A program made the position numbers and the translations under genes. Source: an uncultured delta proteobacterium (GTDB lineage: Bacteria > Desulfobacterota > Binatia > Binatales > Binataceae). Taken from it: a stretch of DNA of 64,000 nucleotides. Location: assembly GCA_963836955.1 (NCBI GenBank), contig CAWILO010000011.1, positions 491,703 to 555,702 of the forward strand, read 5' to 3'. The first letter of the stretch is position 1. Each line of letters starts with the position of its first letter. A model generated the notes under the pieces. The model saw nothing but the letters and a program-made list of their open reading frames with translations. It was not told where the DNA came from and ran no database searches. Shown piece by piece: positions 1-12,016 of the stretch.

Positions 1-2341
1 ACGGCGTCGACTCGAAAGTGCCGCTGATCTGATCGCTTCGGCGCTGGCCCTCGAAGTAGTAGGTCTCAGTGCCGTATGGGACCTGGAACTGCAGGTGGTT
101 GCCGCGCACGAATCCTTCGATCGGCGTCGTCCCGAACCCTGATTGATGTATCTCGAGCTCGCCGTGCAGGAAGCCGTTGGGCTGCGGGCGCAATCTAAGC
201 TCCAGCTCGGGATTGCCGCCGCTGCGAAGACCGCTGATAGTACCGGTCGCGATTGTCGGCCCGATCATCCCGCCCGAAGACATCGAGCTGGTGCCCATCG
301 AGCTGCCGATCGCGCCGCTGCTGCCCGGATACGTGGCGTACGGACTGCCGCCCGCGTCGCCGAGCACCTCGAATTTCTTGGCGCCGAAGTACTGGCCGTT
401 CAAATAAAAATTGACCGTGTAGGTGCCCGGCAGAAACGCGCCGCCGCGCGAGTTGCCGACGCGTCCGCTGAACGTCACCGTCCTCATATTGGGGGAGACC
501 GGCTGAAAATCGTTGACGCTGCCGAGCGTGCGTCCGTCGGGTCCGATATACGCCGCGTCGACGCGGTACTGATTGGGCTCGAGCTTGTAGAGGCGGTTGT
601 CGAAGCTGACCTGCCATCCGACGAACAGCACCTTCGACACGTCGAAAGAGTTGGTCACGCCCGAAAGAGCGGTTCCGGTCTTGGTGGTGTTCAGAAAGCT
701 GATATTGCGGAGCTGCAACGGCTTGGCGCGGCGCTCATCGATCATCGCGAGTTTGCGCGCCTCTTCGTCGCGCTTGCGCTGCTCTTCTTTTGCCGCGGCC
801 GCGGCCGCAGCCGCCGCCGCTGCCTCCGCGTTCTTCGCGCTGAGGTCCTGATTAACGATGAAGCCTTCCTGCGCCAGCATCTTGTCGTTCGAGTAGAGCG
901 CGACTTTGTAGGTGCCGGCGGGCTTGTCGGTCATCGTCGGCATCAACGCGACGCCGCTGAAGTCCGCGGTCTTCTGTGCGGGCCCGACAAAAATATTCGT
1001 GTCGCTCGACGCGATCTGAAGTCCGTTCGGATCGTAGAAACGCGCCTCGATCTTTTCGTCGCGGCCTTCGAGCCCGGCGAGCAGGTTCTTGAAGGTCGCG
1101 GTCCACTTCAGATAGCGCGCATTGGTCAGATCGGTGTCGTTGAATTTCGCTTGCGGCGGTGCCAGTGCGGTGCCCTCGCGCGTCGAGAGCGCCAGCGTCA
1201 TCGTCGAAAATTCCAGTGGATTCTCGCGCGCCTTCGCCAGCAATTCCTCATGCTTCCAGGGCAGTCCGTCGAACATAGGCTTGAGTCCGAGCCGCAGCTG
1301 AAGATCGGGGCTCGAGTAGAGGTAGGTGCCGCCGAACGCGGCTCCCGCCAGCACCACCAGGAAAACCAACAACCCGACCGAGCGGCTGAGCCGGCTCCGC
1401 GGCTTGCGATATTCCAGCGGCGCCTCGTCGTAATCGAGCGCCTCGACCTGCGACAGTCCGCCGGTTCCGCTGGTCGAGTCGACACGGTCGCTGTCGAGCG
1501 ACAGCCCGCGCCCATAGAGCATCATGTCGCGGAAATCCTGGACCTTCGGCGGCCGCCCGGTCATCTCGTATCCGAGAGCAGCGTCGATCGCGCCCGCCAG
1601 GTTGCTCGACACGCCGGGACGAAGATCGCGCACCGGCGGGAAACTGAAAGGCGGAAATTTTTCCGGATCGCGGCCGGTCAGCACGTAATGCAGCGTCGCG
1701 CCGAGCGAGTAGATGTCGCTGCGCGGATCGACCAGCCCCTGGTATTGCTCCGGCGGTGCGAAGCCGAGGGTGCCGATCATCGTGCCCTTGCGCGCCGCCT
1801 TGAACAGCCGCGCGATTCCAAAGTCCACCAGCACGACCCGCCCATTCGGATTAAGCATCACGTTGGACGGCTTCATGTCGCGGTAGATTATCGGCGGTAT
1901 CAGCCCGTGCAGGTACGCGAGCACGTCGCACAGTTGGCGCGCGATATCGATCACCAAGCCCTCGGGCAGCGGCTCGCCGCGCGCCGCGAGTTCTTCCTCG
2001 AGGTTGCGCCCCTCGACGTACTCCATCACCAGGTAATGGCGGTTGGCGAGTTCGAAGCGGTCGGTGATCGCGGGAATCGCCTGATGCTTCAGTTGCGCTA
2101 GCGTGTCGGCTTCGCGCGCGAAATATTCGTTGGCCTCGATCCGCTGCGCCTGGTCGATAAAGTGATCGACCATCTCCTTGATCGCGCACGGTCGATTCGC
2201 CAGCCGCTGGTCGCGCGCGAGATAGACCATCCCCATCCCGCCGCCGCCGAGCAGCCGGTCGATCGCATAGCGACCCTGCAGCACGGTGCCGGGCTCGAGC
2301 GGCCCGGTTTGCTGCGGTGAATCTTTGGGCGAGGTTGCCAT
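1..2341 (-). CDS. Membrane-anchored Hanks-type Ser/Thr protein kinase with extracytoplasmic C-terminal domains (3' end runs off the window)
   Basis: Not in the ORF track; translated by hand from ATG at 2341: MATSPKDSPQQTGPLEPGTVLQGRYAIDRLLGGGGMGMVYLARDQRLANRPCAIKEM..IIYRDMKPSN..LVDFGIAR..GTLGFAPPEQY..RSDIYSLG. This is followed by the hydrophobic segment VGLLVFLVVLAGAAFGGTYLY, and the frame stays open to position 1. Confidence 0.93.
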   Translation of the reverse strand, partial: MATSPKDSPQQTGPLEPGTVLQGRYAIDRLLGGGGMGMVYLARDQRLANRPCAIKEMVDHFIDQAQRIEANEYFAREADTLAQLKHQAIPAITDRFELANRHYLVMEYVEGRNLEEELAARGEPLPEGLVIDIARQLCDVLAYLHGLIPPIIYRDMKPSNVMLNPNGRVVLVDFGIARLFKAARKGTMIGTLGFAPPEQYQGLVDPRSDIYSLGATLHYVLTGRDPEKFPPFSFPPVRDLRPGVSSNLAGAIDAALGYEMTGRPPKVQDFRDMMLYGRGLSLDSDRVDSTSGTGGLSQVEALDYDEAPLEYRKPRSRLSRSVGLLVFLVVLAGAAFGGTYLYSSPDLQLRLGLKPMFDGLPWKHEELLAKARENPLEFSTMTLALSTREGTALAPPQAKFNDTDLTNARYLKWTATFKNLLAGLEGRDEKIEARFYDPNGLQIASSDTNIFVGPAQKTADFSGVALMPTMTDKPAGTYKVALYSNDKMLAQEGFIVNQDLSAKNAEAAAAAAAAAAAKEEQRKRDEEARKLAMIDERRAKPLQLRNISFLNTTKTGTALSGVTNSFDVSKVLFVGWQVSFDNRLYKLEPNQYRVDAAYIGPDGRTLGSVNDFQPVSPNMRTVTFSGRVGNSRGGAFLPGTYTVNFYLNGQYFGAKKFEVLGDAGGSPYATYPGSSGAIGSSMGTSSMSSGGMIGPTIATGTISGLRSGGNPELELRLRPQPNGFLHGELEIHQSGFGTTPIEGFVRGNHLQFQVPYGTETYYFEGQRRSDQISGTFESTP

Positions 2342-2368
2342 CGTCAAAAGCCGGCGCTTCGTCTGCGC

Positions 2369-4411
2369 CTAGCTTGCATACACTACGATCACCGAAATGT
2401 TATCGGTACCGCCGCCGGCATTGGCCGCGACGATCAATTCGCGCGCCGCGTCGAAGGGATCGGCGTTGCGCCCGAGGATGTCGTGGATCTGATTGTCGCT
2501 GACGTGCGCCGTCAAACCGTCGCTGCACAGCATTAGCTTGTCTCCGCGCTTGAACTTCAGCGAGACCGCCTCCGCTCCCGCCGGACCGCTCTGGCGCGCG
2601 CCGAGCGAGCGTGTGATCACGTTCTTGTGCTCGTGCGTATGCGCTTCCTCGGCAGTTATCTGCCCGATTTCTACCAGCCGCTGCACCAGTGAATGATCCT
2701 TCGTGACCTGGCGGAGCGTCGCGCCTTCCATCAGATATCCACGGCTGTCCCCGACCCAGGCCACCGCGGCATATGGGGGCGTGACCAGCGCGCAGACGCC
2801 GGTCGAACCCATTCCGCGAGACTCGGGATGGCTCGCCACATAATCGATAATCCTGGAATTCGCTTCCTCGAGCGCGCCGGTCAGCAGCTCAGCTCCGTTT
2901 GTAACTTCTCCATGTGCGCTTTCAAGCCGCGTTTCAATGTAACTCCGGATCGTCTGGACGGCAATTGCAGAAGCGACTTCGCCCGCCTCCGCACCGCCCA
3001 TCCCGTCGGCGACGACGTACAAATGACTTTGCGCCGGCTCGACCAGCGACTCGCGTGTGTACTCGAGCGCCAGCACCGAGTCCTCGTTATGCTCGCGCAC
3101 GCGGCCGACATCGGTCATCGCCGCCGCGCGCAGCCGGAACGCACCACCGAGCGCAATCAGCTCGGCTTTGAACTCGTCGATATTCGGCCAGCGGTCCGCG
3201 GGATTGAAAGCAATAGCGCGGCGAATCGCATTCTCCAGCCGCGGCGAAACTACGTGCGGAGGGTAGAACTGAACCGGACCCGCTTCCTCGCGCCAACTCT
3301 CGCTGGGTATCCTCGCGCCCGTGAGCCATGTGTAAAGGAGGGCGCCGGCCGAAAAAATATCGGCGCGCTTGTCCACCTTTTTGCCCCGATAAATCTCGGG
3401 CGCCGTGTAGCCGTCGTTGAAAATCGGCTCGCTCTGAAGCTCGTTGTCGTTGCTGACGTAGTCCAGCCCCGTGAGCTTGAGCCGCCCGTCCTTTGCGACG
3501 GCAACTGATTCGGGGCAGATGTCGTTGAGGCGCAGCGCACGGCGATGTACAAACGAAATCGCCTGGCAGACCTGCACCGCAGCAGCGATAGCATCCGTCT
3601 CGGACATTTTCCCCGAACCGCGGCGAATCGGCTTGAGTTCCTCGTCGGCATAAACCAGGTACACGCGGCCGTTCTCCGCGAAGCCTTCGGTCGCGCGCTG
3701 GAATGCCGGATGACTGATCGTCTGTGACAGGGCGAGCACACGGCCGAACACTTCGCCGAGATCTTCACCGACCGGCGGCGACGTATCCTCGTGCGCGCCG
3801 TCGTCGCTCTCGAGATCCTCCTGAGTTTCGGCTACGACTACCGCTTCCGCGGCTTCGCTCGATTCGTCCGGAGATGCGTTCTCGGCAGCCTCTTCGATTG
3901 CAGCGGTGCTTGGCTCGGCCTCGACTGTCGACTGCGCGCCTTCTCCCGACGCGATCGCACTCGACGACTCCACGTGCGAGCTCGACGCGTGCTGCTGTGG
4001 CGCTGGCGACGCGGTACCGTTTGTCTGCGCAGCCGGGGGTCTCAACTCCGCCGTCTTGGCGCTCGGCCCATTGGGATCCTCGACCCGCGGCGCAGGCTTC
4101 GGCGTCTCGACGACCGGCGCTTCTTCGACAACTTCCGCCGAGGGATTCGGACCGAAGCGCTCGCGCAATACGATAGATTCGGTTTTGTCGTCGCGGACGC
4201 GTTTTGCGCGGTAGCGATTTTCTATCGACGTCTGACTCGACAGCGCGACTATCTCGATTCCGCGCTTCAACGACGCGCCTGCCGTCAGCGGCGTCGGCTG
4301 CGTCGGCGATTGCGAGGCGGATGCGGCCGACTTGGACAACCCCTGGCCGCATCGATCGCAGAACTTGGCGTCGTCGGGCGCCTCTTGGCCGCATTCGGGA
4401 CAGGTGATCAT
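2369..4411 (-). CDS. Double zinc ribbon + degenerate kinase domain + PP2C/PPM (Stp1-like) phosphatase fusion
   Basis: N-terminal CPECG..CDRCG; kinase-like LNDICPES, GYTAPE, DIFSAG; PP2C motifs DVGRVREHNED, VADGMGG, WVGDSRGY, LCSDGL, GGTDNISVI. Confidence 0.92.
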   Translation of the reverse strand: MITCPECGQEAPDDAKFCDRCGQGLSKSAASASQSPTQPTPLTAGASLKRGIEIVALSSQTSIENRYRAKRVRDDKTESIVLRERFGPNPSAEVVEEAPVVETPKPAPRVEDPNGPSAKTAELRPPAAQTNGTASPAPQQHASSSHVESSSAIASGEGAQSTVEAEPSTAAIEEAAENASPDESSEAAEAVVVAETQEDLESDDGAHEDTSPPVGEDLGEVFGRVLALSQTISHPAFQRATEGFAENGRVYLVYADEELKPIRRGSGKMSETDAIAAAVQVCQAISFVHRRALRLNDICPESVAVAKDGRLKLTGLDYVSNDNELQSEPIFNDGYTAPEIYRGKKVDKRADIFSAGALLYTWLTGARIPSESWREEAGPVQFYPPHVVSPRLENAIRRAIAFNPADRWPNIDEFKAELIALGGAFRLRAAAMTDVGRVREHNEDSVLALEYTRESLVEPAQSHLYVVADGMGGAEAGEVASAIAVQTIRSYIETRLESAHGEVTNGAELLTGALEEANSRIIDYVASHPESRGMGSTGVCALVTPPYAAVAWVGDSRGYLMEGATLRQVTKDHSLVQRLVEIGQITAEEAHTHEHKNVITRSLGARQSGPAGAEAVSLKFKRGDKLMLCSDGLTAHVSDNQIHDILGRNADPFDAARELIVAANAGGGTDNISVIVVYAS

Positions 4412-4417
4412 GCGCCG

Positions 4418-6115
4418 CTAGCCTCTCCGAAACTGCAATATAGCACCACCGAGCACCACCTGGTCTCGATCTTTTAATTTGTAAAGCTGGTCGCGTCCGA
4501 GTTTGCCGCGCCCCGCGATATAAGTGCCGTTCAGGCTGCCGAGATCGCGGATGAAGTAATCCGCGCCGCGCAGCACTATCTCCGCATGGCGTCGCGACAC
4601 GCGATCGCCGTTGTGCGCCAGCTTCTTCAGATCGATGTCGAGTTTGTCGCCACCGTCCTGCGATCGTCCGATCGTGGTGCGCATCCCGAAAATTCCGAAC
4701 TCGATATCGTCGCCGCGCGAGACCAGCTTGGCCGGCGCAACGGATAGGTCGGCGCCGTTTTTACTGTTACCGAACAGTCCGTCAGATGCTGGCCCGGTCG
4801 AAATCGGTGGCGAGTAATTGCGCGACGAAGACGAGCGCGAACCCGTCCGCGATTTCGTGTCTGCCGGCGTCGATTCGCCGGTCGACCCTGACCGCGACAC
4901 GTACGGCGCCGCGGCCGCAGGAGGATTCAGCTCCTTGGTCTTCGCCGTCGATGACGGGTTTGGCGACCGCGACGAAAGCCGCGACTTGAGCCGCCGTTCG
5001 ATTATGCTGCGCGCCCTGCCGGTCAGCTCGATTGCTTTTTTGATCTGCGGCGCGACGATCTTTGCCGCCGTGCTACCCGCGCTGGAGATGTTGCCGTTTT
5101 TGATTTTCTCCGCGACTGGCTCGTTCAGCACGATCGTCGGCATCGTGGATACTGGCGGCTTGGATACTAGCGATTTCCATGGTGTCAAGCGCGACGGCTC
5201 GGGCGTTGGAGAGCTGTTCAGCACAACGGTTGACTGCGTGGAAATACGGCTCGGCGCACCCGCAAGGCTCGCGCTCCCGCCCAATTGTCCCGACTTATTC
5301 TCGGGTGGCGGCTCCGGCAGAGCGCGCTTCATCTCTTTTGCCGACACCTGCCGCTTGTTCACGTCCTGCTCGAGCGCGCGCATGACTGCGTCTGCAGTCT
5401 TCGGCGAAACTTCAGGCGACAGAGCACGCAGGGGAGGAAAGCTGAACGGCGGCTCGAGCTGCGGATCGCGGCCGGTCAGCAGATGATGCATCGTGGCGGC
5501 CAGCGAATAGAGATCCGAGCGCGCCTCGACCTTGCCCATGTATTGCTCGGGCGGCGCGTAGCCGACCGAGCCGATTTGCGTGCCGCGTCCACCGGGCGGC
5601 AGGAAGCGCGCGATTCCAAAATCGATCAGCATCGCGCGGCCGTCCTTGTCGATCATGATATTGCCCGGCTTCAGGTCGCGATAAATTATCGGCGGGTTCT
5701 GCTTGTGCAGAAAATCGAGCACGTCGAGCATCTGCCGCGCCCAGCGCAGCACCTTGTCCTCGGCGACTTTGCCCTTGGGCCCCAGCTTGTCGAGCACGCC
5801 CTGCAAATCGCCGCCCGCGACAAATTCCATCACCAGGTAGTGGCGCGAGTTTTCGGCGAAGTGATCGATCAGCGTCGGGATGCCCGGATGCGACAGGCGC
5901 GCGAGCACGTTGGCCTCGCGCGTGAAATCCTCGATCGCTTTTTTCTCCTGGATTCCGTCGCCGACGATCATCTCCTTGACCGCCACCGGACGGTTCGCCA
6001 GGCGCGTGTCGTTGGACAGGTACACGCGCCCCATCCCGCCGACGCCGAGCACCTTCTTGACCCGGTAACGACCGTCGAGAAGATGGCCCTCGGTGAGCTC
6101 CTCACCCGCATTCAT
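4418..6115 (-). CDS. Ser/Thr protein kinase with C-terminal FHA domain
   Basis: GVGGMGRVY, VAVKEM, YRDLKPGN, DFG, APPEQY; Ser/Pro-rich linker; FHA motifs IGR..VSRRHA..DLGSLNGT. Confidence 0.95.
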   Translation of the reverse strand: MNAGEELTEGHLLDGRYRVKKVLGVGGMGRVYLSNDTRLANRPVAVKEMIVGDGIQEKKAIEDFTREANVLARLSHPGIPTLIDHFAENSRHYLVMEFVAGGDLQGVLDKLGPKGKVAEDKVLRWARQMLDVLDFLHKQNPPIIYRDLKPGNIMIDKDGRAMLIDFGIARFLPPGGRGTQIGSVGYAPPEQYMGKVEARSDLYSLAATMHHLLTGRDPQLEPPFSFPPLRALSPEVSPKTADAVMRALEQDVNKRQVSAKEMKRALPEPPPENKSGQLGGSASLAGAPSRISTQSTVVLNSSPTPEPSRLTPWKSLVSKPPVSTMPTIVLNEPVAEKIKNGNISSAGSTAAKIVAPQIKKAIELTGRARSIIERRLKSRLSSRSPNPSSTAKTKELNPPAAAAPYVSRSGSTGESTPADTKSRTGSRSSSSRNYSPPISTGPASDGLFGNSKNGADLSVAPAKLVSRGDDIEFGIFGMRTTIGRSQDGGDKLDIDLKKLAHNGDRVSRRHAEIVLRGADYFIRDLGSLNGTYIAGRGKLGRDQLYKLKDRDQVVLGGAILQFRRG

Positions 6116-6190: not shown

Positions 6191-6856
6191 TCAAGAGATC
6201 GGTTCTACCACCAGCTTCAAAAACGTTTTCCCGATGATCACTTCGTCGCCCGATTTGATCTCGGCGGGACTTCCCGGCGAGAGCCGCGGCTGACGATTCA
6301 CGTAGGTTCCGTTCAGACTGCCGATGTCCTCGATCGTGATCTTGCCGGCGTCGATTCGAATCAACGCATGCTTGCGCGAGATCTTGGCCTCGGGATCGTC
6401 GGCGTCGAGATCCACTTCCGGAAACGATCCGGTCTCGGGATCCCATCGGCCCACCAGGTTGTTGCCCTCTTCGAGCGGAAATTCCTGGCCCTTGCGTCCA
6501 CCGCGAACGACAGAAAGCTTCGCCTTGAACGGTGCACCGGCGGCAGCCGTCGCCGAGGGCGCACTCTCAGGGGCAGCCTCAGGTTTGATCTCACCCGTCG
6601 GAGCATCCGACTTGGGCACTTCAGTGGTCGGCATTTCGCCGTCCGGCTTCGCATCAGCGGCGAGCGAAGGAGTCGCGTTGGCGTCGATACTTTCTGCGGT
6701 CGCAGCCGGCGGCGTTTCGGTTTTAGTCTCGGCGGCAGGAGCTCCAGCAGGAACCGAGGCGGCGCTGCTGCCTGCGGCGGCGAGCTTGGCGCCGCATCCG
6801 TCGCAGTAATCAAGTCCGTCCATGTTTTCGTAGCCGCATTCGCCGCATTTGATCAT
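6191..6856 (-). CDS. Zinc ribbon + FHA domain protein
   Basis: CGECG..CDGCG; Ala/Pro linker; FHA motifs VGRWD..ISRKHA..DIGSLNGTYVN. Confidence 0.93.
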   Translation of the reverse strand: MIKCGECGYENMDGLDYCDGCGAKLAAAGSSAASVPAGAPAAETKTETPPAATAESIDANATPSLAADAKPDGEMPTTEVPKSDAPTGEIKPEAAPESAPSATAAAGAPFKAKLSVVRGGRKGQEFPLEEGNNLVGRWDPETGSFPEVDLDADDPEAKISRKHALIRIDAGKITIEDIGSLNGTYVNRQPRLSPGSPAEIKSGDEVIIGKTFLKLVVEPIS

Positions 6857-6932: not shown

Positions 6933-8237
6933 TTATTCCGACTTCTGGAAATCCTTCAACGCTTCCGGATCGAGCATCTGGGTCTTGCGCACCACCGCCT
7001 GCGCCTGCAGCAGCGTAGTCTTCGCGGCCTTGGTCTGCAGCGTCTGCGTCTTCTTGATCTGATCCATCAGGCCCGCCAGCGCCTGCGTTGCCTTGACGTT
7101 GCCCATCCGCTGCGTGCCCTGCAGCGCGTTGCCGAGCAGCCGGGTGGCACGATCGACGTTGCCGGCCTTCAGCTCCTCTTCGGCCTTCGCCTGCAGCTTG
7201 GCGATCGAAACCTGGTCGACCAGGTTCATCACGCGGCCGTTGCGCTTGCTGGTCAGCGTGCGATCGAGCGTGTAGTCAACCGTCAAATCGCAGGCCACGG
7301 TGTTTTCGCCGCCACCCGGCACTTCATAATGAAAAGTGCTCTGCAGAATTCTGACCTGCCCCGGCTTGCGCGGCGGCAGCACCAGCGTCAGCAACACCGA
7401 TCCGGGCACTCCTGCCTGCAGGTCGCCTATCTCGTAGCTGATTTTGCGATCCTCGCCGACCAGCGGTGTACCGAGCACGTAAATTTCCGGCGACGCGCGA
7501 AAGGCCTCGCGCACCTGCACGCCCTGCGACAGCGTCACCTCGATTCGCCCGTTGCGCAGGCTCACCGAGCGCAGGCCCTCGAGCTCGTCTTCGAAGATAT
7601 GAGGAATCTCGGCGGGATCGCCGATGAAATGATATTTGCCGTTGGAGTCCTGCGCGATTCGCTGTAGGAGCTTCTCGTTGAACTCGACGCCGACGCCCAT
7701 CGTCGAGAACGAAATCTGGTCGCGATTTTTCTCGACCAGCTCGATACATGCTGTCTCTTCGTAGGTCTGACCGTCGGTGAGCACCAACACGCGATTGAGG
7801 CGATCGGGGCTCAGATTTTTCTTGACCTCTTCGATCGCCGCGCGCATCCCGAGCGCCATCTGCGTGCCGCCGCCGATCTCAAGCAGGTCGATATCGTCGA
7901 TCGCCCGCTTGATTGCGGCCTGGTCGCGCGCTTCCTCCGGGGTGATCAGCACCTTCGCCTTGTCGGCGAACGCTACAATCGAGACCTTGTCGTCCGGTGT
8001 CAGGTTGTCGGCCAGGAACTTGACCGCCTCGACGACGAATTCCAGGCGCCGCTCGTCGTACATCGAGCCCGAGCGATCTATCACTACGCCAAGGTTGAGC
8101 GGCATCCTGCTCCCACCGCCCGCGCCACCTCTACCCCGGGCAACAGCCTCGAGCAGCACGTAGAGTACGAAGTTTTCCGCGCTGGAGAGCACATGTTCGC
8201 TGCTCGCCAGCGCCTCGAAGCTAAGCGGATCGGCCAT
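6933..8237 (-). CDS. von Willebrand factor A (vWA) domain protein with C-terminal helical extension
   Basis: Intact MIDAS: VIDRSGSM, GGT, LTDG; followed by a beta-sandwich-like region and a helical tail. Confidence 0.9.
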   Translation of the reverse strand: MADPLSFEALASSEHVLSSAENFVLYVLLEAVARGRGGAGGGSRMPLNLGVVIDRSGSMYDERRLEFVVEAVKFLADNLTPDDKVSIVAFADKAKVLITPEEARDQAAIKRAIDDIDLLEIGGGTQMALGMRAAIEEVKKNLSPDRLNRVLVLTDGQTYEETACIELVEKNRDQISFSTMGVGVEFNEKLLQRIAQDSNGKYHFIGDPAEIPHIFEDELEGLRSVSLRNGRIEVTLSQGVQVREAFRASPEIYVLGTPLVGEDRKISYEIGDLQAGVPGSVLLTLVLPPRKPGQVRILQSTFHYEVPGGGENTVACDLTVDYTLDRTLTSKRNGRVMNLVDQVSIAKLQAKAEEELKAGNVDRATRLLGNALQGTQRMGNVKATQALAGLMDQIKKTQTLQTKAAKTTLLQAQAVVRKTQMLDPEALKDFQKSE

Positions 8238-8457: not shown

Positions 8458-8841
8458 ATGCGAACTGCCAACAAGCACATCCGCCACGGAGTCGGCAGCG
8501 TCCGCCCGTATCTATACGGCCGCCTGGATATGCTGGAACTCGTCAAACGGGCATTCGGCGCGGTGGAACTGGAACACCTGAAGATGGGCAACGGCGCACA
8601 CGTCGAGGCGAAAATCGGCGACTCGATGGTCGTGATGGAAGTCAGCGACCCGCCCCACCCGGGCGCAAAGCCCGCGTCGATTTACGTCTACGTCGAGGAT
8701 GTAGACGACGCCTACCAGCGAGCACTGGCCGCGGGCGCCACCTCGGTGACGGCCCCCGAAAACAAGCCCTACCAGGAGCGCGCCGCCGGCATAAAGGACT
8801 CCTTCGGCAACATCTGGTACATCGCAACGTACACCGGGTGA
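8458..8841 (+). CDS. VOC/glyoxalase (PhnB-like) family protein
   Basis: VRPYL..HVEAKIGDS..YVEDVDDAYQRAL..YQERAAGIKDSFGNIWYI; GAGG RBS upstream. Confidence 0.88.
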   Translation: MRTANKHIRHGVGSVRPYLYGRLDMLELVKRAFGAVELEHLKMGNGAHVEAKIGDSMVVMEVSDPPHPGAKPASIYVYVEDVDDAYQRALAAGATSVTAPENKPYQERAAGIKDSFGNIWYIATYTG

Positions 8842-8897
8842 TCGAAAAAGAGCGCGACCGCAGAACCCCGCATCCTGCTTATTGCCTGGTAGTCGGC

Positions 8898-9043
8898 ACC
8901 TAACCCCTAATCCCTAGGGAAGGGAACCCGATTGCCGCCGACCGAGAGCAAAGTAGTGCGCTGCGCGCAACTTTGCGATTGATACCGGGTGCAGGGGTCA
9001 CTCCTGCCGAGGGTAGTGTGAAACCCACCGCGGGTTTCACATT
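8898..9043 (+). repeat. Intergenic multi-hairpin repeat, family A, copy 1
   Basis: Core GACCGAGAGCAAAGTAGTGCGCTGCGCGCAACTTTGCGATTGA..GTGCAGGGGT..CCTGCC..GTGAAACCCACCGCGGGTTTCACATT is shared with 13041-13195, 14599-14778 and 27126-27370. Confidence 0.95.
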
Positions 9044-9116
9044 TGATTAAGTGATTTACCCTTCCCCTCCGCCGCGCTGGATGCCCTCCGCAAAAAAGCG
9101 TAAGAGAGTAAGCGCT

Positions 9117-10283
9117 ATGTCTTTAAAAGGTAAATGCGCTATCGCCGGGCTCGGCCAGACCCGGATGGGTAAAAACTTCGATCATCCCGGACCGATCGGC
9201 TTCGCTGCCGAGGCCGTCAATCTCGCGCTCGAGGACGCCGGCCTTGAGCGCTCCGACATCGACGGCCTGCTCGTCAATCCCGGGATCACCTGGTTCAACA
9301 ATCCGATGGCGTCGACGTCGCTGCAGAACGCGATGGGCATCCGCGACCTCCGCCTGACTGCGACGATGAACCTCGGCGGCGCGACCGCGGCGGCGATGCT
9401 TATGCATGCCGCTCAGGCTATCGACGCCGGCATGGCCGAGGTCGTCGCCTGCGTGTTCGCCGACGCTCCCCTCCGTCCACCTTCGCCCAAGGGCAAGGAC
9501 GCCGGCTCTGCAGCCTCCTACGGCTTCGCCCAGGGTCTCAACGCGCACTACGGCCAGTTCGGCGTCAACGCTCAGTATGCGTTCGTCGCCCAGCGCCATA
9601 TGTATCGCTATGGGACCACCAACGATCACCTCGGCGCCGTCGCGGTATCCGAGCGCAACTGGGCCAACTTGAATCCCGATGCCCAGTTCCATGACACTCC
9701 GATGTCGATGGCGGACTACCACGCCTCGCGATGGGTGGTTGAGCCGTTCCATCTCTACGACTGCTGCCTGGTTTCCAACGGCGGTCTTGCGGTTATCGTG
9801 ACTTCCGCCGAGCGCGCGAAGACCCTGAAGTGCCCGCCCGTGTACATCCTGGGGATGGGGCAGGGTCATCCCGGCGGCGATCCGCTCGACACGCTGGTTT
9901 CCGGAGCGCCGATCGCCAAAGATACCGCCTTCAAGATGGCTGGGATCAAGCTGGGCGACGTCAACTTCTGCGAGCTCTACGACTGCTATACTTTCACCGT
10001 GCTTGTCACACTCGAAGACTACGGCTTTTGCAAAAAGGGCGAAGGCGGACCCTTCGTCGCCAGCGGCGCTATCGGCCCGAACGGCTCGCTTCCGGTCAAT
10101 ACCGGCGGCGGCCAGCTCAGCTCCTTCTATATGTGGGGGATGACCCCGGTCGCGGAGGCTATCGTGCAGATGCGTGGGGATGGAGGGCGGCGGCAAGTGC
10201 CAAAACACGACGTTGGACTCGTTTCAGGCAATGGCGGTATCCTTGCAACGCACTCAACGCTCGTTTTGGGTAACCAACCGTAG
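9117..10283 (+). CDS. Thiolase-superfamily protein, Ltp2-like (SCP2-type) probable aldolase
   Basis: Start chosen at ATG 9117 (MSLKGKCAIAG). The usual nucleophile-Cys position reads LGGAT; ELYDCYT and NTGGGQLSSFY motifs are present; a DUF35 gene follows. Confidence 0.85.
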   Translation: MSLKGKCAIAGLGQTRMGKNFDHPGPIGFAAEAVNLALEDAGLERSDIDGLLVNPGITWFNNPMASTSLQNAMGIRDLRLTATMNLGGATAAAMLMHAAQAIDAGMAEVVACVFADAPLRPPSPKGKDAGSAASYGFAQGLNAHYGQFGVNAQYAFVAQRHMYRYGTTNDHLGAVAVSERNWANLNPDAQFHDTPMSMADYHASRWVVEPFHLYDCCLVSNGGLAVIVTSAERAKTLKCPPVYILGMGQGHPGGDPLDTLVSGAPIAKDTAFKMAGIKLGDVNFCELYDCYTFTVLVTLEDYGFCKKGEGGPFVASGAIGPNGSLPVNTGGGQLSSFYMWGMTPVAEAIVQMRGDGGRRQVPKHDVGLVSGNGGILATHSTLVLGNQP

Positions 10284-10356
10284 TATTAGCTGTGATTCGC
10301 GCTGTCACTACCCTTGACGTGACGTAGTGCGCTTCAATCGTTTCAACCGCTAATAC
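10283..10356. other. Long imperfect hairpin between the thiolase-like and DUF35 genes
   Basis: GTATTAGC(10283-90)/GCTAATAC(10349-56), GATT/AATC, GCG/CGC and CACTAC/GTAGTG pair in nested order. Confidence 0.6.
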
Positions 10357-10385
10357 GTCTAAGTTAATATATAAGCCAGACTGCG

Positions 10386-10802
10386 ATGCCTGAAATCAGC
10401 AAACCTGTCCCTGCAGTCACTCCCGACATGCGCGAGTTCTTCGAGGGCGCGCGCGCGGGACGCCTGATGCTCCAGAAGTGCGACGGATGCGGGACGCTCC
10501 GGTTCCCCGCTCACGACCTCTGCTCGAAGTGCAACTCGACCGCCTCGCGATGGGTCCCGGTGAGCGGCCGCGGCGAAGTCTTCAGCTTCAATATCATGCA
10601 CCAGATTTACCATCCGGGGTTCGCCGGCCAGGTGCCTTACGCCGTGGTCGTAGTCGAGCTCGAGGAAGGATGCAAATTCGTTTCGAACCTGCTTGGCGTC
10701 AAGCCGCACGACATAAAGTGCGGGATGCCGGTGGAAGTCACATTCGAAAAGCTTAACGATGAAGTCGCGATGCCGAAGTTCCGGCTTCGCGCCGCGAAAT
10801 AA
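10386..10802 (+). CDS. Zn-ribbon/OB-fold (DUF35-type) acyl-CoA-binding partner protein
   Basis: LQKCDGCG..FPAHDLCSKC..SGRGEVFSF..PYAVVVVELEEG. Confidence 0.9.
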   Translation: MPEISKPVPAVTPDMREFFEGARAGRLMLQKCDGCGTLRFPAHDLCSKCNSTASRWVPVSGRGEVFSFNIMHQIYHPGFAGQVPYAVVVVELEEGCKFVSNLLGVKPHDIKCGMPVEVTFEKLNDEVAMPKFRLRAAK

Positions 10803-10837
10803 TCCGGCTCGACTGAATTTATCAAGGAATTATCAAT

Positions 10838-12016
10838 TTGCTGCTCGATCAAAAGTATTTCCAGCGTCTCATCGCGAGTTCGCCGGATATCATAATTGCC
10901 GTCGATAAGGACGGCATCGTCAACTATTACAACGACGGCGCACGCACCAGCCTCGGCTACAGCTCCGACGAGATGATCGGCCAGAACTGCACGCGCATCT
11001 ATCCGTCGATTGATGAAGCGCGCCGCGTAATGAAAGCGATGCGGGATTCTACCGACTCCGGCAAAATCGCCAGCTTCGAGACCATCTTCCGCGACAAGGG
11101 CGGTGAACTCATCCCGGTCATGATCTCCGGCGCGCTCATCCACGACGACGAGGGCAACGAAGTCGGATCGATCGGTTTCGCCCGCGACATCCGCCGTCTG
11201 CGCCGCGCGCAGCAACTCGCGACCGCCGGCGAAATAGCGGTCAGCCTTGCCCACGAGATCAACAATCCGCTCGAATCGATCACCAACAATCTCGAACTGC
11301 TCTCGCAATGCGTCCAGGGGCACCTTAGCGAGTCCGAAAAAGTCGTCGAGAACGAACGCTTCGACTCGATTCGAAATTCCCTGGAACGCGTGCAGGCCAT
11401 CGTCCGCCGCCTCGATGAGATGGCCCGCAAGGGCGAGTACGAGACGCGCGACTACCTGGCCGGCAAGCGGATGGCCGACCTGGCTCCGCGCGAAGATAAA
11501 GTTCATACGCGGCCCCATGACGCGCCGCATCTGGTTGCCGAGCAATCTCCGCTGGCCGGGATGTCGGTGCTGGTGCTCGACGACGATACCGCCGTCGTCA
11601 ACTCGATGGCCGACCTGCTGCGCGCCGAGAAATGCATCGTGCACTGCGCCACGCGTCCTTCGGCCGCATTCGGAATCCTGCGCAACGTCAAGCTCGATGC
11701 GGTTATTTCCGACGTCGTGATGCCCGAGATGGACGGGTACGACTTCTATCTCAAGGTGAAAGAAGAGATGCCGTCGTTGCCGGTCATCCTGATGACGGCC
11801 TACTACTACGACAAGGATCACATCCTGAAGCGCTCGCGCCTGCGCGGCCTCGAAGGCGCGCTGTTCAAGAAGCCGGTAAATCCCGGGAAGCTGCGCGCGA
11901 TGCTCCTGCAATTGCGCCAGAAAGCGGCCCAGGAAAAAGCCAACGCAAGAGCCGCAGCGATAGCAGCCAAATCCGCCGCCGTAGAATCAACACCAAAACT
12001 AATCCCCCAGTCCTGA
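10838..12016 (+). CDS. PAS + HisKA (DHp) + receiver domain protein lacking an ATPase domain
   Basis: PAS (SPDIIIAVD..YNDGA..LGY); H-box LAHEINNPL; receiver VLDDD..ISDVVMPEMDG..LMTA..KKP; no N/G1/F/G2 boxes. Confidence 0.85.
   Translation: MLLDQKYFQRLIASSPDIIIAVDKDGIVNYYNDGARTSLGYSSDEMIGQNCTRIYPSIDEARRVMKAMRDSTDSGKIASFETIFRDKGGELIPVMISGALIHDDEGNEVGSIGFARDIRRLRRAQQLATAGEIAVSLAHEINNPLESITNNLELLSQCVQGHLSESEKVVENERFDSIRNSLERVQAIVRRLDEMARKGEYETRDYLAGKRMADLAPREDKVHTRPHDAPHLVAEQSPLAGMSVLVLDDDTAVVNSMADLLRAEKCIVHCATRPSAAFGILRNVKLDAVISDVVMPEMDGYDFYLKVKEEMPSLPVILMTAYYYDKDHILKRSRLRGLEGALFKKPVNPGKLRAMLLQLRQKAAQEKANARAAAIAAKSAAVESTPKLIPQS

Follow-up and report, generated by a model that had tools for sequence, protein, structure and literature searches.

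A pseudokinase fused to an intact PP2C phosphatase in Candidatus Binatus, with a conserved threonine motif as candidate FHA ligand in an ArnA/ArnB-like gene cluster

The 64-kb stretch of contig CAWILO010000011.1 analyzed here (the window), from an uncultured bacterium of the Binataceae, encodes near its start a 680-residue protein, P0001, in which a Zn ribbon, a kinase fold that has lost its catalytic motifs, a long disordered insert and an intact PP2C phosphatase domain are joined in one chain. This protein belongs to an undescribed and widespread bacterial family of Zn-ribbon/pseudokinase/PP2C proteins that spans several phyla. Its gene is the fourth in a same-strand cluster of five, and on balance we lean towards a composite reading in which P0001 would serve as the dedicated eraser of an ArnA/ArnB-like vWA/FHA phospho-switch and would dock onto an FHA domain through phosphorylated threonine 120 (T120) of its insert. 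The anatomy of the protein is almost beyond doubt; what is uncertain is the phospho-FHA step. The four parts (Zn ribbon at residues 4-23, kinase fold, disordered insert at 89-215 and PP2C at 427-680) lie in the window as follows, where pLDDT is the predicted local distance difference test score of AlphaFold2.

2369..4411, minus strand: pseudokinase-PP2C gene (P0001), a single open reading frame with an ATG start, 680 residues plus stop codon (open reading frame list and translation).
4343..4402, minus strand: four-Cys Zn ribbon, residues 4-23 (Pfam Zn_Ribbon_1, E 1.4e-6).
4148..4279, minus strand: pseudokinase N-lobe strands beta1-beta3, residues 45-88 (AlphaFold2, Foldseek and family alignment).
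3767..4147, minus strand: acidic, disordered insert that separates beta3 from alphaC, residues 89-215 (pLDDT, composition and conservation).
4043..4081, minus strand: short linear motif EDPNGPSAKTAELR within the insert, residues 111-123, with T120 and L123 at +3, a candidate FHA ligand (conservation).
3140..3766, minus strand: pseudokinase from alphaC to alphaI, residues 216-424 (Pfam, phmmer against the PDB, Foldseek and motif alignment).
2372..3133, minus strand: Stp1/PstP-type PP2C (PPM) phosphatase domain, residues 427-680 (NCBIfam, Foldseek and alignment).

The kinase homology of P0001 is far beyond chance. Pfam Pkinase gives a partial match to residues 228-370 (E 1.9e-14), phmmer against the PDB matches Aurora A, MARK4 and PknB (E 1.5e-11), and Foldseek recovers a bilobal kinase fold (E 2.8e-14), with template modelling (TM) scores of 0.80-0.81 to Aurora A and 0.60-0.78 to PknB. 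Motifs were judged against solved kinases and against both active kinases of the same operon, and were located at residues 80-84 (IVLRE), 228-237 (LSQTISHPAF), 295-302 (LNDICPES), 313-317 (LTGLD), 334-339 (GYTAPE) and 351-356 (DIFSAG). The Gly-rich GxGxxG loop is missing, with SSQTSIEN in its place, and beta2 reads ENRYRA. In beta3, the canonical Lys of IVLRE is replaced by Arg83, and the position of the alphaC Glu is taken by Arg224/Val225. The catalytic loop LNDICPES keeps its Asp (D297) and carries Cys299 instead of the Lys and Ser302 instead of the Mg-binding Asn, while DFG has become GLD, with Gly315 in place of the Asp. Both GYTAPE and DIFSAG are retained in the C-lobe. Two of the three residues by which pseudokinases are defined (VAIK Lys, HRD Asp and DFG Asp) are thus gone. 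Because the G-loop, the beta3 (VAIK) Lys, the alphaC Glu, the Lys and Asn of HRDxKxxN and the DFG Asp are all lost, P0001 falls outside the catalytically competent Hanks-type (eukaryotic protein kinase, ePK) Ser/Thr kinases, and its kinase fold is, by its motifs, a pseudokinase.

The opposite view would be that the domain is live through non-canonical ATP binding or phosphotransfer, which would make P0001 a bifunctional kinase-phosphatase. In keeping with this, D297 at the HRD position is invariant in the Binatus group, and Arg83 together with D317 at DFG+2 mirrors the arrangement of DYD pseudokinases and POMK, for which ATP binding has been modelled (PMC12599244). However, the G-loop, catalytic-loop Lys, Mg-binding Asn and DFG Asp have all gone, and since the D297 and beta3 positions both vary across the wider family, no catalytic constellation is conserved. 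We consider a live kinase very unlikely.

AlphaFold2 was run on a 41-sequence alignment and on the isolated domain. Strands are predicted at residues 52-60, 65-73 and 76-86 with pLDDT 82-95, alphaC at 219-231 and then a normal C-lobe, and pLDDT is below 50 across residues 92-214. Foldseek alignments running across the insert score TM 0.80-0.81 against complete Aurora A domains, compared with 0.60-0.69 when only the C-terminal 213-224 columns are aligned. Because the strands are confidently predicted and the TM score rises once the insert is bridged, residues 45-88 are assigned to the N-lobe sheet, and the insert therefore splits the N-lobe between beta3 and alphaC. It comprises 127 residues, 60% of them Pro, Ala, Ser or Glu; 26 are acidic and 4 basic, and aromatic residues are absent.

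The PP2C domain of P0001 is intact and of the Stp1/IreP/PstP type, with predicted Mn/Mg-dependent phosphatase activity. The NCBIfam model NF033484 (Stp1_PP2C, Stp1/IreP) scores 240.6 bits against a curated cutoff of 230 and is covered over positions 1-231 of 232, and the Pfam PP2C match extends over residues 435-672. The metal-binding residues D444, D469, D555, D631 and D670, which belong to the motifs NED, DGMGG, GDSR, DG and DN, are invariant in the 41-sequence family alignment, as is N671. Foldseek gives TM scores of 0.82-0.92 to PstP, tPphA and Stp1, those to PstP (1txo/2cm1) and tPphA being 0.89-0.92. The domain starts about 4 residues after the alphaI helix of the kinase fold, and the activation segment (residues 309-356) is nearly invariant within the Binatus group and variable across the wider family. 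Because of this close join and this lineage-specific constancy, it is plausible that the pseudokinase acts as an allosteric or docking module that gates the phosphatase, as had been proposed in an earlier sequence-only reading of the window. That reading had also described a dead kinase with a retained C-lobe, an N-lobe split by a long disordered Pro/Ala/Ser/Glu-rich insert and a PP2C with intact metal motifs, and had named structure prediction and alignment to Pkinase as a check. All the motif strings it quoted are present, the kinase motifs are lost when set beside the active operon kinases, both checks return a kinase fold, and its accounts of the insert and the phosphatase hold. It had mentioned neither the Zn ribbon nor the invariant motif within the insert.

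The family to which P0001 belongs was delimited by an exhaustive profile-free search over 1.8 billion representative proteins, which returned dozens of proteins of 550-760 residues and 27-44% identity that match both the kinase-like and the PP2C parts. Nearly all of these relatives start with a CxxC...CxxC ribbon, and the family alignment shows almost no variation at the ribbon cysteines of P0001 (C4, C7, C18 and C21). In a 30-member alignment, the Gly-rich loop and HRDxKxxN are each present in 0/30 sequences, and the DFG Asp in none apart from a few "DFS" exceptions. The features kept are N-x-Y-x-A in beta2, QLCQ in alphaE, G[YF][ST][AP]PE and D[IV][YF]S.G. The position of D297 is occupied by N, G, A, L or E elsewhere in the family and that of the beta3 Lys by K, R, L, E, C or H; inspection of the 30-member alignment by eye showed no consistent co-variation of a basic beta3 residue with an acidic DFG+2. 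Named members, with taxonomy taken from the source names, come from Binatia, Methylomirabilota, "Deltaproteobacteria", Blastocatellia (Acidobacteriota) and Armatimonadota, and all are annotated solely as PP2C phosphatase. In a maximum-likelihood tree of the pseudokinases together with active kinases, one branch (support 94/91) parts the fused pseudokinases from the active operon kinases; the tree is unrooted and samples few active kinases, and this topology is consistent with an old fusion rather than with repeated decay of a neighboring kinase. A distant member (P0143) lies on another stretch, L001 (574-9770), where three receptor kinases in tandem, with periplasmic-binding-protein ectodomains, precede its gene. 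As there is no vWA gene on that stretch, the pseudokinase-PP2C family is not tied to the vWA/FHA module everywhere.

Bacterial pseudokinases have barely been studied. A 2025 review describes seven families, ActPs1-3, GLW, CP1, DYD and DLHK, none of them fused to a phosphatase, and nowhere mentions PP2C (PMC12599244); no described bacterial pseudokinase-PP2C fusion was found in the limited set of literature searched. P0001 lies outside these families, as it has GLD rather than DYD and LND rather than GLW, and has neither a transmembrane segment nor a COG3899 domain. Membership of the DYD family, which the beta3 Arg and the acidic DFG+2 might suggest, was rejected on motif, architecture and taxonomy. 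DYD pseudokinases do share with P0001 the beta3 Lys to Arg change, the missing alphaC Glu and the acidic DFG+2, but they keep the first Asp (DYD versus GLD), are membrane-anchored, occur in Actinobacteria and Firmicutes and are not fused to PP2C (PMC12599244). The P0001 family, which annotation pipelines call only "PP2C phosphatase", closes a gap in the list of known bacterial pseudokinases. The Pseudomonas proteins in which PP2C and an active Hanks-type kinase share one polypeptide are comparable in that respect, although their PP2C is N-terminal, the opposite order, and they are described as Ser/Thr/Tyr kinases (STYKs), without any report that catalytic motifs are lost (PMC1262709).

Full-length homologues of P0001 number more than 120, with 71-98% identity, and those with names are Candidatus Binatus or Binataceae metagenome-assembled genomes (MAGs). 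Regional conservation was measured as consensus identity among 117 Binatus-type homologues and is 0.95 for the Zn ribbon, 0.89 for the N-lobe strands, 0.93 for the rest of the pseudokinase and 0.92 for PP2C. For the insert it is 0.61-0.65, and the Ser/Thr residues of the insert are mostly unconserved, yet residues 111-123 (EDPNGPxAKTAEL[RK]) stand at 0.98. Within the family the beta3-alphaC linker can be as short as 1 residue and as long as 158. In the sister group of Binatus (P0133 type, 44% identity, from other Binatia and Methylomirabilota) it is 9 residues, and long acidic inserts have arisen independently at the same site in the unrelated clade of P0154, P0162 and P0177, there without the AKTAEL motif. 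Because linker length varies, the sister group is short and another clade gained its own insert, the insert of P0001 is best seen as a lineage-specific addition, made in Candidatus Binatus and its close relatives at a permissive loop, and because most homologues have no long insert, it is an add-on rather than part of the family core. Two points of the sequence-only reading were borne out in part. It had named homologues with canonical motifs and no insert as a finding that would count against it; the homologues do not have the canonical motifs, since the whole family is degenerate, whereas most lack a long insert. It had also supposed that the Ser/Thr-rich insert is a phosphorylation substrate read by FHA proteins, an idea that the drift of most of its Ser/Thr residues does not favor and that one motif does, namely EDPNGPxAKTAEL, with T120 and a Leu at +3 and a copy in the linker of an FHA-bearing kinase.

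That kinase and the other members of the cluster are encoded as follows.

6933-8237, minus strand: vWA protein gene (P0004), operon member.
6972..7055, minus strand: three KTxxL motifs (KKTQTL, AKTTLL and RKTQML) in the C-terminal helical tail of the vWA protein, residues 395-422.
6191..6856, minus strand: ZnR-FHA protein (P0125), ArnA-like, second candidate reader (Pfam FHA, E 1.5e-14, and DZR).
4418-6115, minus strand: FHA-kinase gene, directly upstream of the P0001 gene.
4928..4945, minus strand: AKTKEL, within the disordered FHA-kinase linker, matching the P0001 motif.
4448..4678, minus strand: FHA domain (residues 480-556) within the FHA-kinase, a candidate for reading the motif (Pfam FHA, E 3.7e-14).
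2-2347, minus strand: membrane receptor-type kinase gene, which runs past the window edge.

Only 6 nucleotides separate the stop of the FHA-kinase gene from the start of the P0001 gene. The motif is almost fixed in the Binatus lineage: AKTAEL is found in 116 of the 117 Binatus-type homologues, and its core is kept in relatives of 65% and 52% identity. A six-frame translation of the whole window contains exactly two matches to AKT.EL, SAKTAELRPPAA in the P0001 insert and TAKTKELNPPAA in the FHA-kinase linker, both of them in disordered linkers of adjacent operon genes. In the kinase, the motif forms part of a stretch S-S-T-A-K-T-x-E-L in which the positions S, S, T, A, K, T and L each reach 98% conservation or more among 120 orthologues, while the rest of the linker is mostly about 30-80% conserved. 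In both copies the Thr and the Leu at +3 are the strictest positions (at least 98%), the Glu at +2 is conserved and +1 is free (A, K, R, Q or S). FHA domains select for pT-x-x-[L/I/V], a pattern that T120 with its Leu at +3 fits. The residues that bind phosphothreonine (GR, SRxH and NG) are canonical in both FHA domains of the cluster and appear in the FHA-kinase as GR...SRRH...NGT.

The distribution of the motif follows that of the kinase. Six-frame scans of the window and of four related loci (L007-L010) found [AS]KT.[ED]L twice per locus, once in each gene, in 5/5 long-insert loci, and the same scans gave 0 matches in the short-linker loci L002 and L011 and in the distant loci L001, L004 and L005. 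The FHA-kinase gene is missing from 3/3 short-linker loci (L002, L003 and L011). In the short-linker relative P0133, RTTRL was considered as an equivalent motif and rejected, as it sits in alphaC and not in the linker. Two further islands of the form T[VI]VLN (T-x-x-L), STVVLN and PTIVLN, occur in the FHA-kinase linker at 5123-5230 on the minus strand (residues ~296-331), PTIVLN being at least 98% conserved in the 120 orthologues; these islands may be extra FHA ligands or autophosphorylation sites. One of the FHA-kinase orthologues (P0439, 84% identical) is labelled "Verrucomicrobiae bacterium" where all others carry the label Binatus, and its source is probably a mis-binned MAG contig.

The setting of the motif pair resembles the ArnA/ArnB switch of Sulfolobus acidocaldarius, which works with the kinases ArnC and ArnD. 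The vWA protein matches ArnB (8S05_A, E 7.4e-11 over residues 51-401; 5A8J, E 6.9e-8) and the ZnR-FHA protein matches ArnA (5A8I, E 2.6e-10) in phmmer comparisons. In Sulfolobus, kinases phosphorylate threonines of the C-terminal helical domain of ArnB, which are then bound by the FHA domain of ArnA (PMC6509490; PMC12852372), and ArnA docks on ArnB through its Zn finger (PMC12852372). The two systems are thus alike in their ZnR-FHA and vWA homologues, in the repeated threonine motifs of the vWA C-terminal region (here the KTxxL motifs, which are conserved in 5/5 operons compared, including that of a short-linker relative of 44% identity) and, in the proposed reading, in a Zn finger as tether. 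They differ in that the archaeal eraser is an unlinked PP2A of the PPP family and that the archaeal system has neither a pseudokinase-PP2C nor an FHA-kinase (PDB 5A8I, 5A8J and 8S05; PMC6509490; PMC12852372). The Zn ribbon of P0001 is homologous to that of the ZnR-FHA protein, with whose N-terminus it shares 55% identity over 22 residues. The two genes, those of the putative eraser (4343-4402) and of the FHA reader (6782-6856), both on the minus strand, open with near-identical ribbons of the form MI.C.ECG.E..D....CD.CG. This likeness suggests a common docking site, possibly the one on the vWA protein that corresponds to the ArnA Zn-finger site.

The cluster could instead be a TerY-P-type (vWA, PP2C and kinase) anti-phage or stress-defence module, with P0001 as its phosphatase, a role that would be compatible with that of an eraser in a phospho-switch. 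The three-part composition is that of the TerY-P triad (PMC10542128), and the vWA protein passes the Pfam vWA-TerF-like cutoff (32.9 versus 29.4 bits). Set against this, PADLOC gave 0 matches for the vWA and FHA proteins and only generic kinase-domain matches for the others, so that the cluster is not assigned to a known defence system, and the vWA protein matches ArnB and the ZnR-FHA protein ArnA. In addition, genes for a thiolase-like protein, a DUF35 protein and a PAS-HisKA-REC protein adjoin the operon at the same chromosomal position in relatives down to 65% identity, and because these neighbors are constant the locus looks like core genome rather than a mobile island. We regard a defence module as improbable.

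In the phospho-switch that we favor, the five genes would supply a vWA scaffold, a ZnR-FHA reader, an FHA-kinase, P0001 as eraser and a membrane receptor kinase. By analogy with ArnA and ArnB, P0001 would be anchored to the vWA scaffold by its Zn ribbon, and the pseudokinase, rigidly coupled to PP2C, would serve as a non-catalytic docking and positioning module for the partner kinases. The operon kinases would phosphorylate T120, and an FHA domain would bind the resulting pT-x-x-L, the likeliest one being that of the upstream FHA-kinase, because its gene appeared together with the motif and its own linker carries AKTxEL. If the phosphorylated motif is bound by this FHA domain, kinase activity would recruit the kinase's own phosphatase onto the kinase complex, where it would dephosphorylate the kinase, the vWA tail and itself. 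The outcome would be a self-limiting negative feedback loop that works like the pairing of Ptc2(pT376) with Rad53 FHA1.

Several points weigh against this account. The co-occurrence of motif and FHA-kinase gene is a matter of 5 versus 3 loci from related lineages and may for that reason reflect a single evolutionary event. Conservation of the motif speaks for constraint but does not tell from which partner it comes; the motif could be a mere kinase docking or consensus site, and its Glu could be a ligand of the vWA protein's MIDAS (metal ion-dependent adhesion site). The full-length model, from which inter-domain geometry would be read, has a predicted TM (pTM) score of only 0.54. Lastly, the retained D297, together with the resemblance of Arg83 and Asp317 to the beta3-Arg/DYD arrangement, which has been proposed to still bind ATP (PMC12599244), makes nucleotide binding by the pseudokinase possible.

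The doubts over the partner can be drawn together into a different explanation, in which the insert is an entropic spacer and AKTAEL is bound by something other than an FHA domain, either the vWA MIDAS through the motif Glu or a kinase groove independently of phosphorylation. The ArnB-type vWA domain has an intact MIDAS, which has been proposed to bind a glutamate of its partner (PMC6509490), the +2 Glu is kept in both copies of the motif, and the long acidic inserts that arose elsewhere at this site do without the motif. However, the strictness of the Thr and the +3 Leu beside a variable +1 is the pattern expected of a pT-x-x-L FHA ligand, and the motif co-occurs with the gain of an FHA-bearing kinase. 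On this evidence a non-FHA partner seems rather unlikely, and T120 as a phospho-dependent FHA ligand is the reading we retain.

The closest parallel to the proposed recruitment is found in yeast, where a Thr of the PP2C phosphatases Ptc2 and Ptc3, outside the catalytic core, is phosphorylated and bound by the FHA-kinase Rad53, bringing in the phosphatase that switches the kinase off (PMC2954851). On the level of sequence P0001 has the corresponding elements, AKTAEL with T120 and L123 outside PP2C and an FHA-kinase encoded 6 nucleotides upstream. The yeast system differs in being eukaryotic, in having unlinked proteins and CK2 as priming kinase, and in that Ptc2 has neither a pseudokinase nor a Zn ribbon, and the binding in the bacterial case is one that we infer. 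A bacterial pseudokinase with a flanking segment that is phosphorylated by a Hanks kinase and recruits an FHA protein is known from the MviN/PknB/FhaA system of Mycobacterium tuberculosis (as summarised in PMC12599244); the MviN pseudokinase, in contrast, is fused to a lipid II flippase, and it is a C-terminal tail, rather than an N-lobe insert, that carries the phosphosite. In Deinococcus, DRA0334 joins PP2C to a kinase-targeting module, KI-FHA, within a vWA/STK/FHA/PP2C operon (bioRxiv 10.64898/2026.01.23.701218). The polarity is reversed there, as the phosphatase carries the FHA domain, whereas P0001 carries a putative phosphothreonine ligand and a dead kinase and the kinase carries the reader. 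In plants, the phosphatase KAPP likewise combines KI-FHA with PP2C, and in both cases the eraser is drawn to the kinase in a phospho-dependent way. Neither Pfam nor NCBIfam finds an FHA domain in P0001, which places it outside the KAPP/KI-FHA-PP2C group.

A further step, which is speculative and which we hold to be doubtful, is that the Binatus lineage, on gaining the FHA-kinase gene, evolved matched AKTxEL motifs that compete for one FHA pocket. The copy in the kinase would serve auto-inhibition or dimerization, as in Chk2 and Rad53, and the copy in the eraser would displace it and deliver PP2C, giving a bacterial pulse generator convergent on Rad53/Ptc2, and the whole family would be the built-in eraser of ArnAB-like switches. 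If this were true, a single operon would encode a pulse generator with the checkpoint logic of the eukaryotic Rad53/Ptc2 pair. The Binatus protein offers a sharply defined and testable handle on these ideas, a single invariant threonine motif in a drifting insert with a twin in the adjacent FHA-kinase, and could stand as a bacterial equivalent of the Ptc2-Rad53 and ArnA-ArnB paradigms.

Some observations concern the surroundings of the cluster. Upstream of it, at 8458-12016 of the window and at the corresponding place in L007-L010, lie the thiolase-like/DUF35 pair and the PAS-HisKA-REC protein, the latter without an ATPase domain, as divergently oriented and conserved neighbors (in relatives down to 65% identity). 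In L008 (15115-16773) and L009 (13848-15491), another FHA protein of 289 residues and a protein of 253-255 residues without a Pfam match are encoded after the receptor kinase, and the counterparts of these genes would fall past the left edge of the window. In L010 (5033-8739), the vWA (257+117 residues) and FHA-kinase (262+232 residues) genes are called in short pieces, which are probably frameshift errors of a long-read assembly and not real decay.

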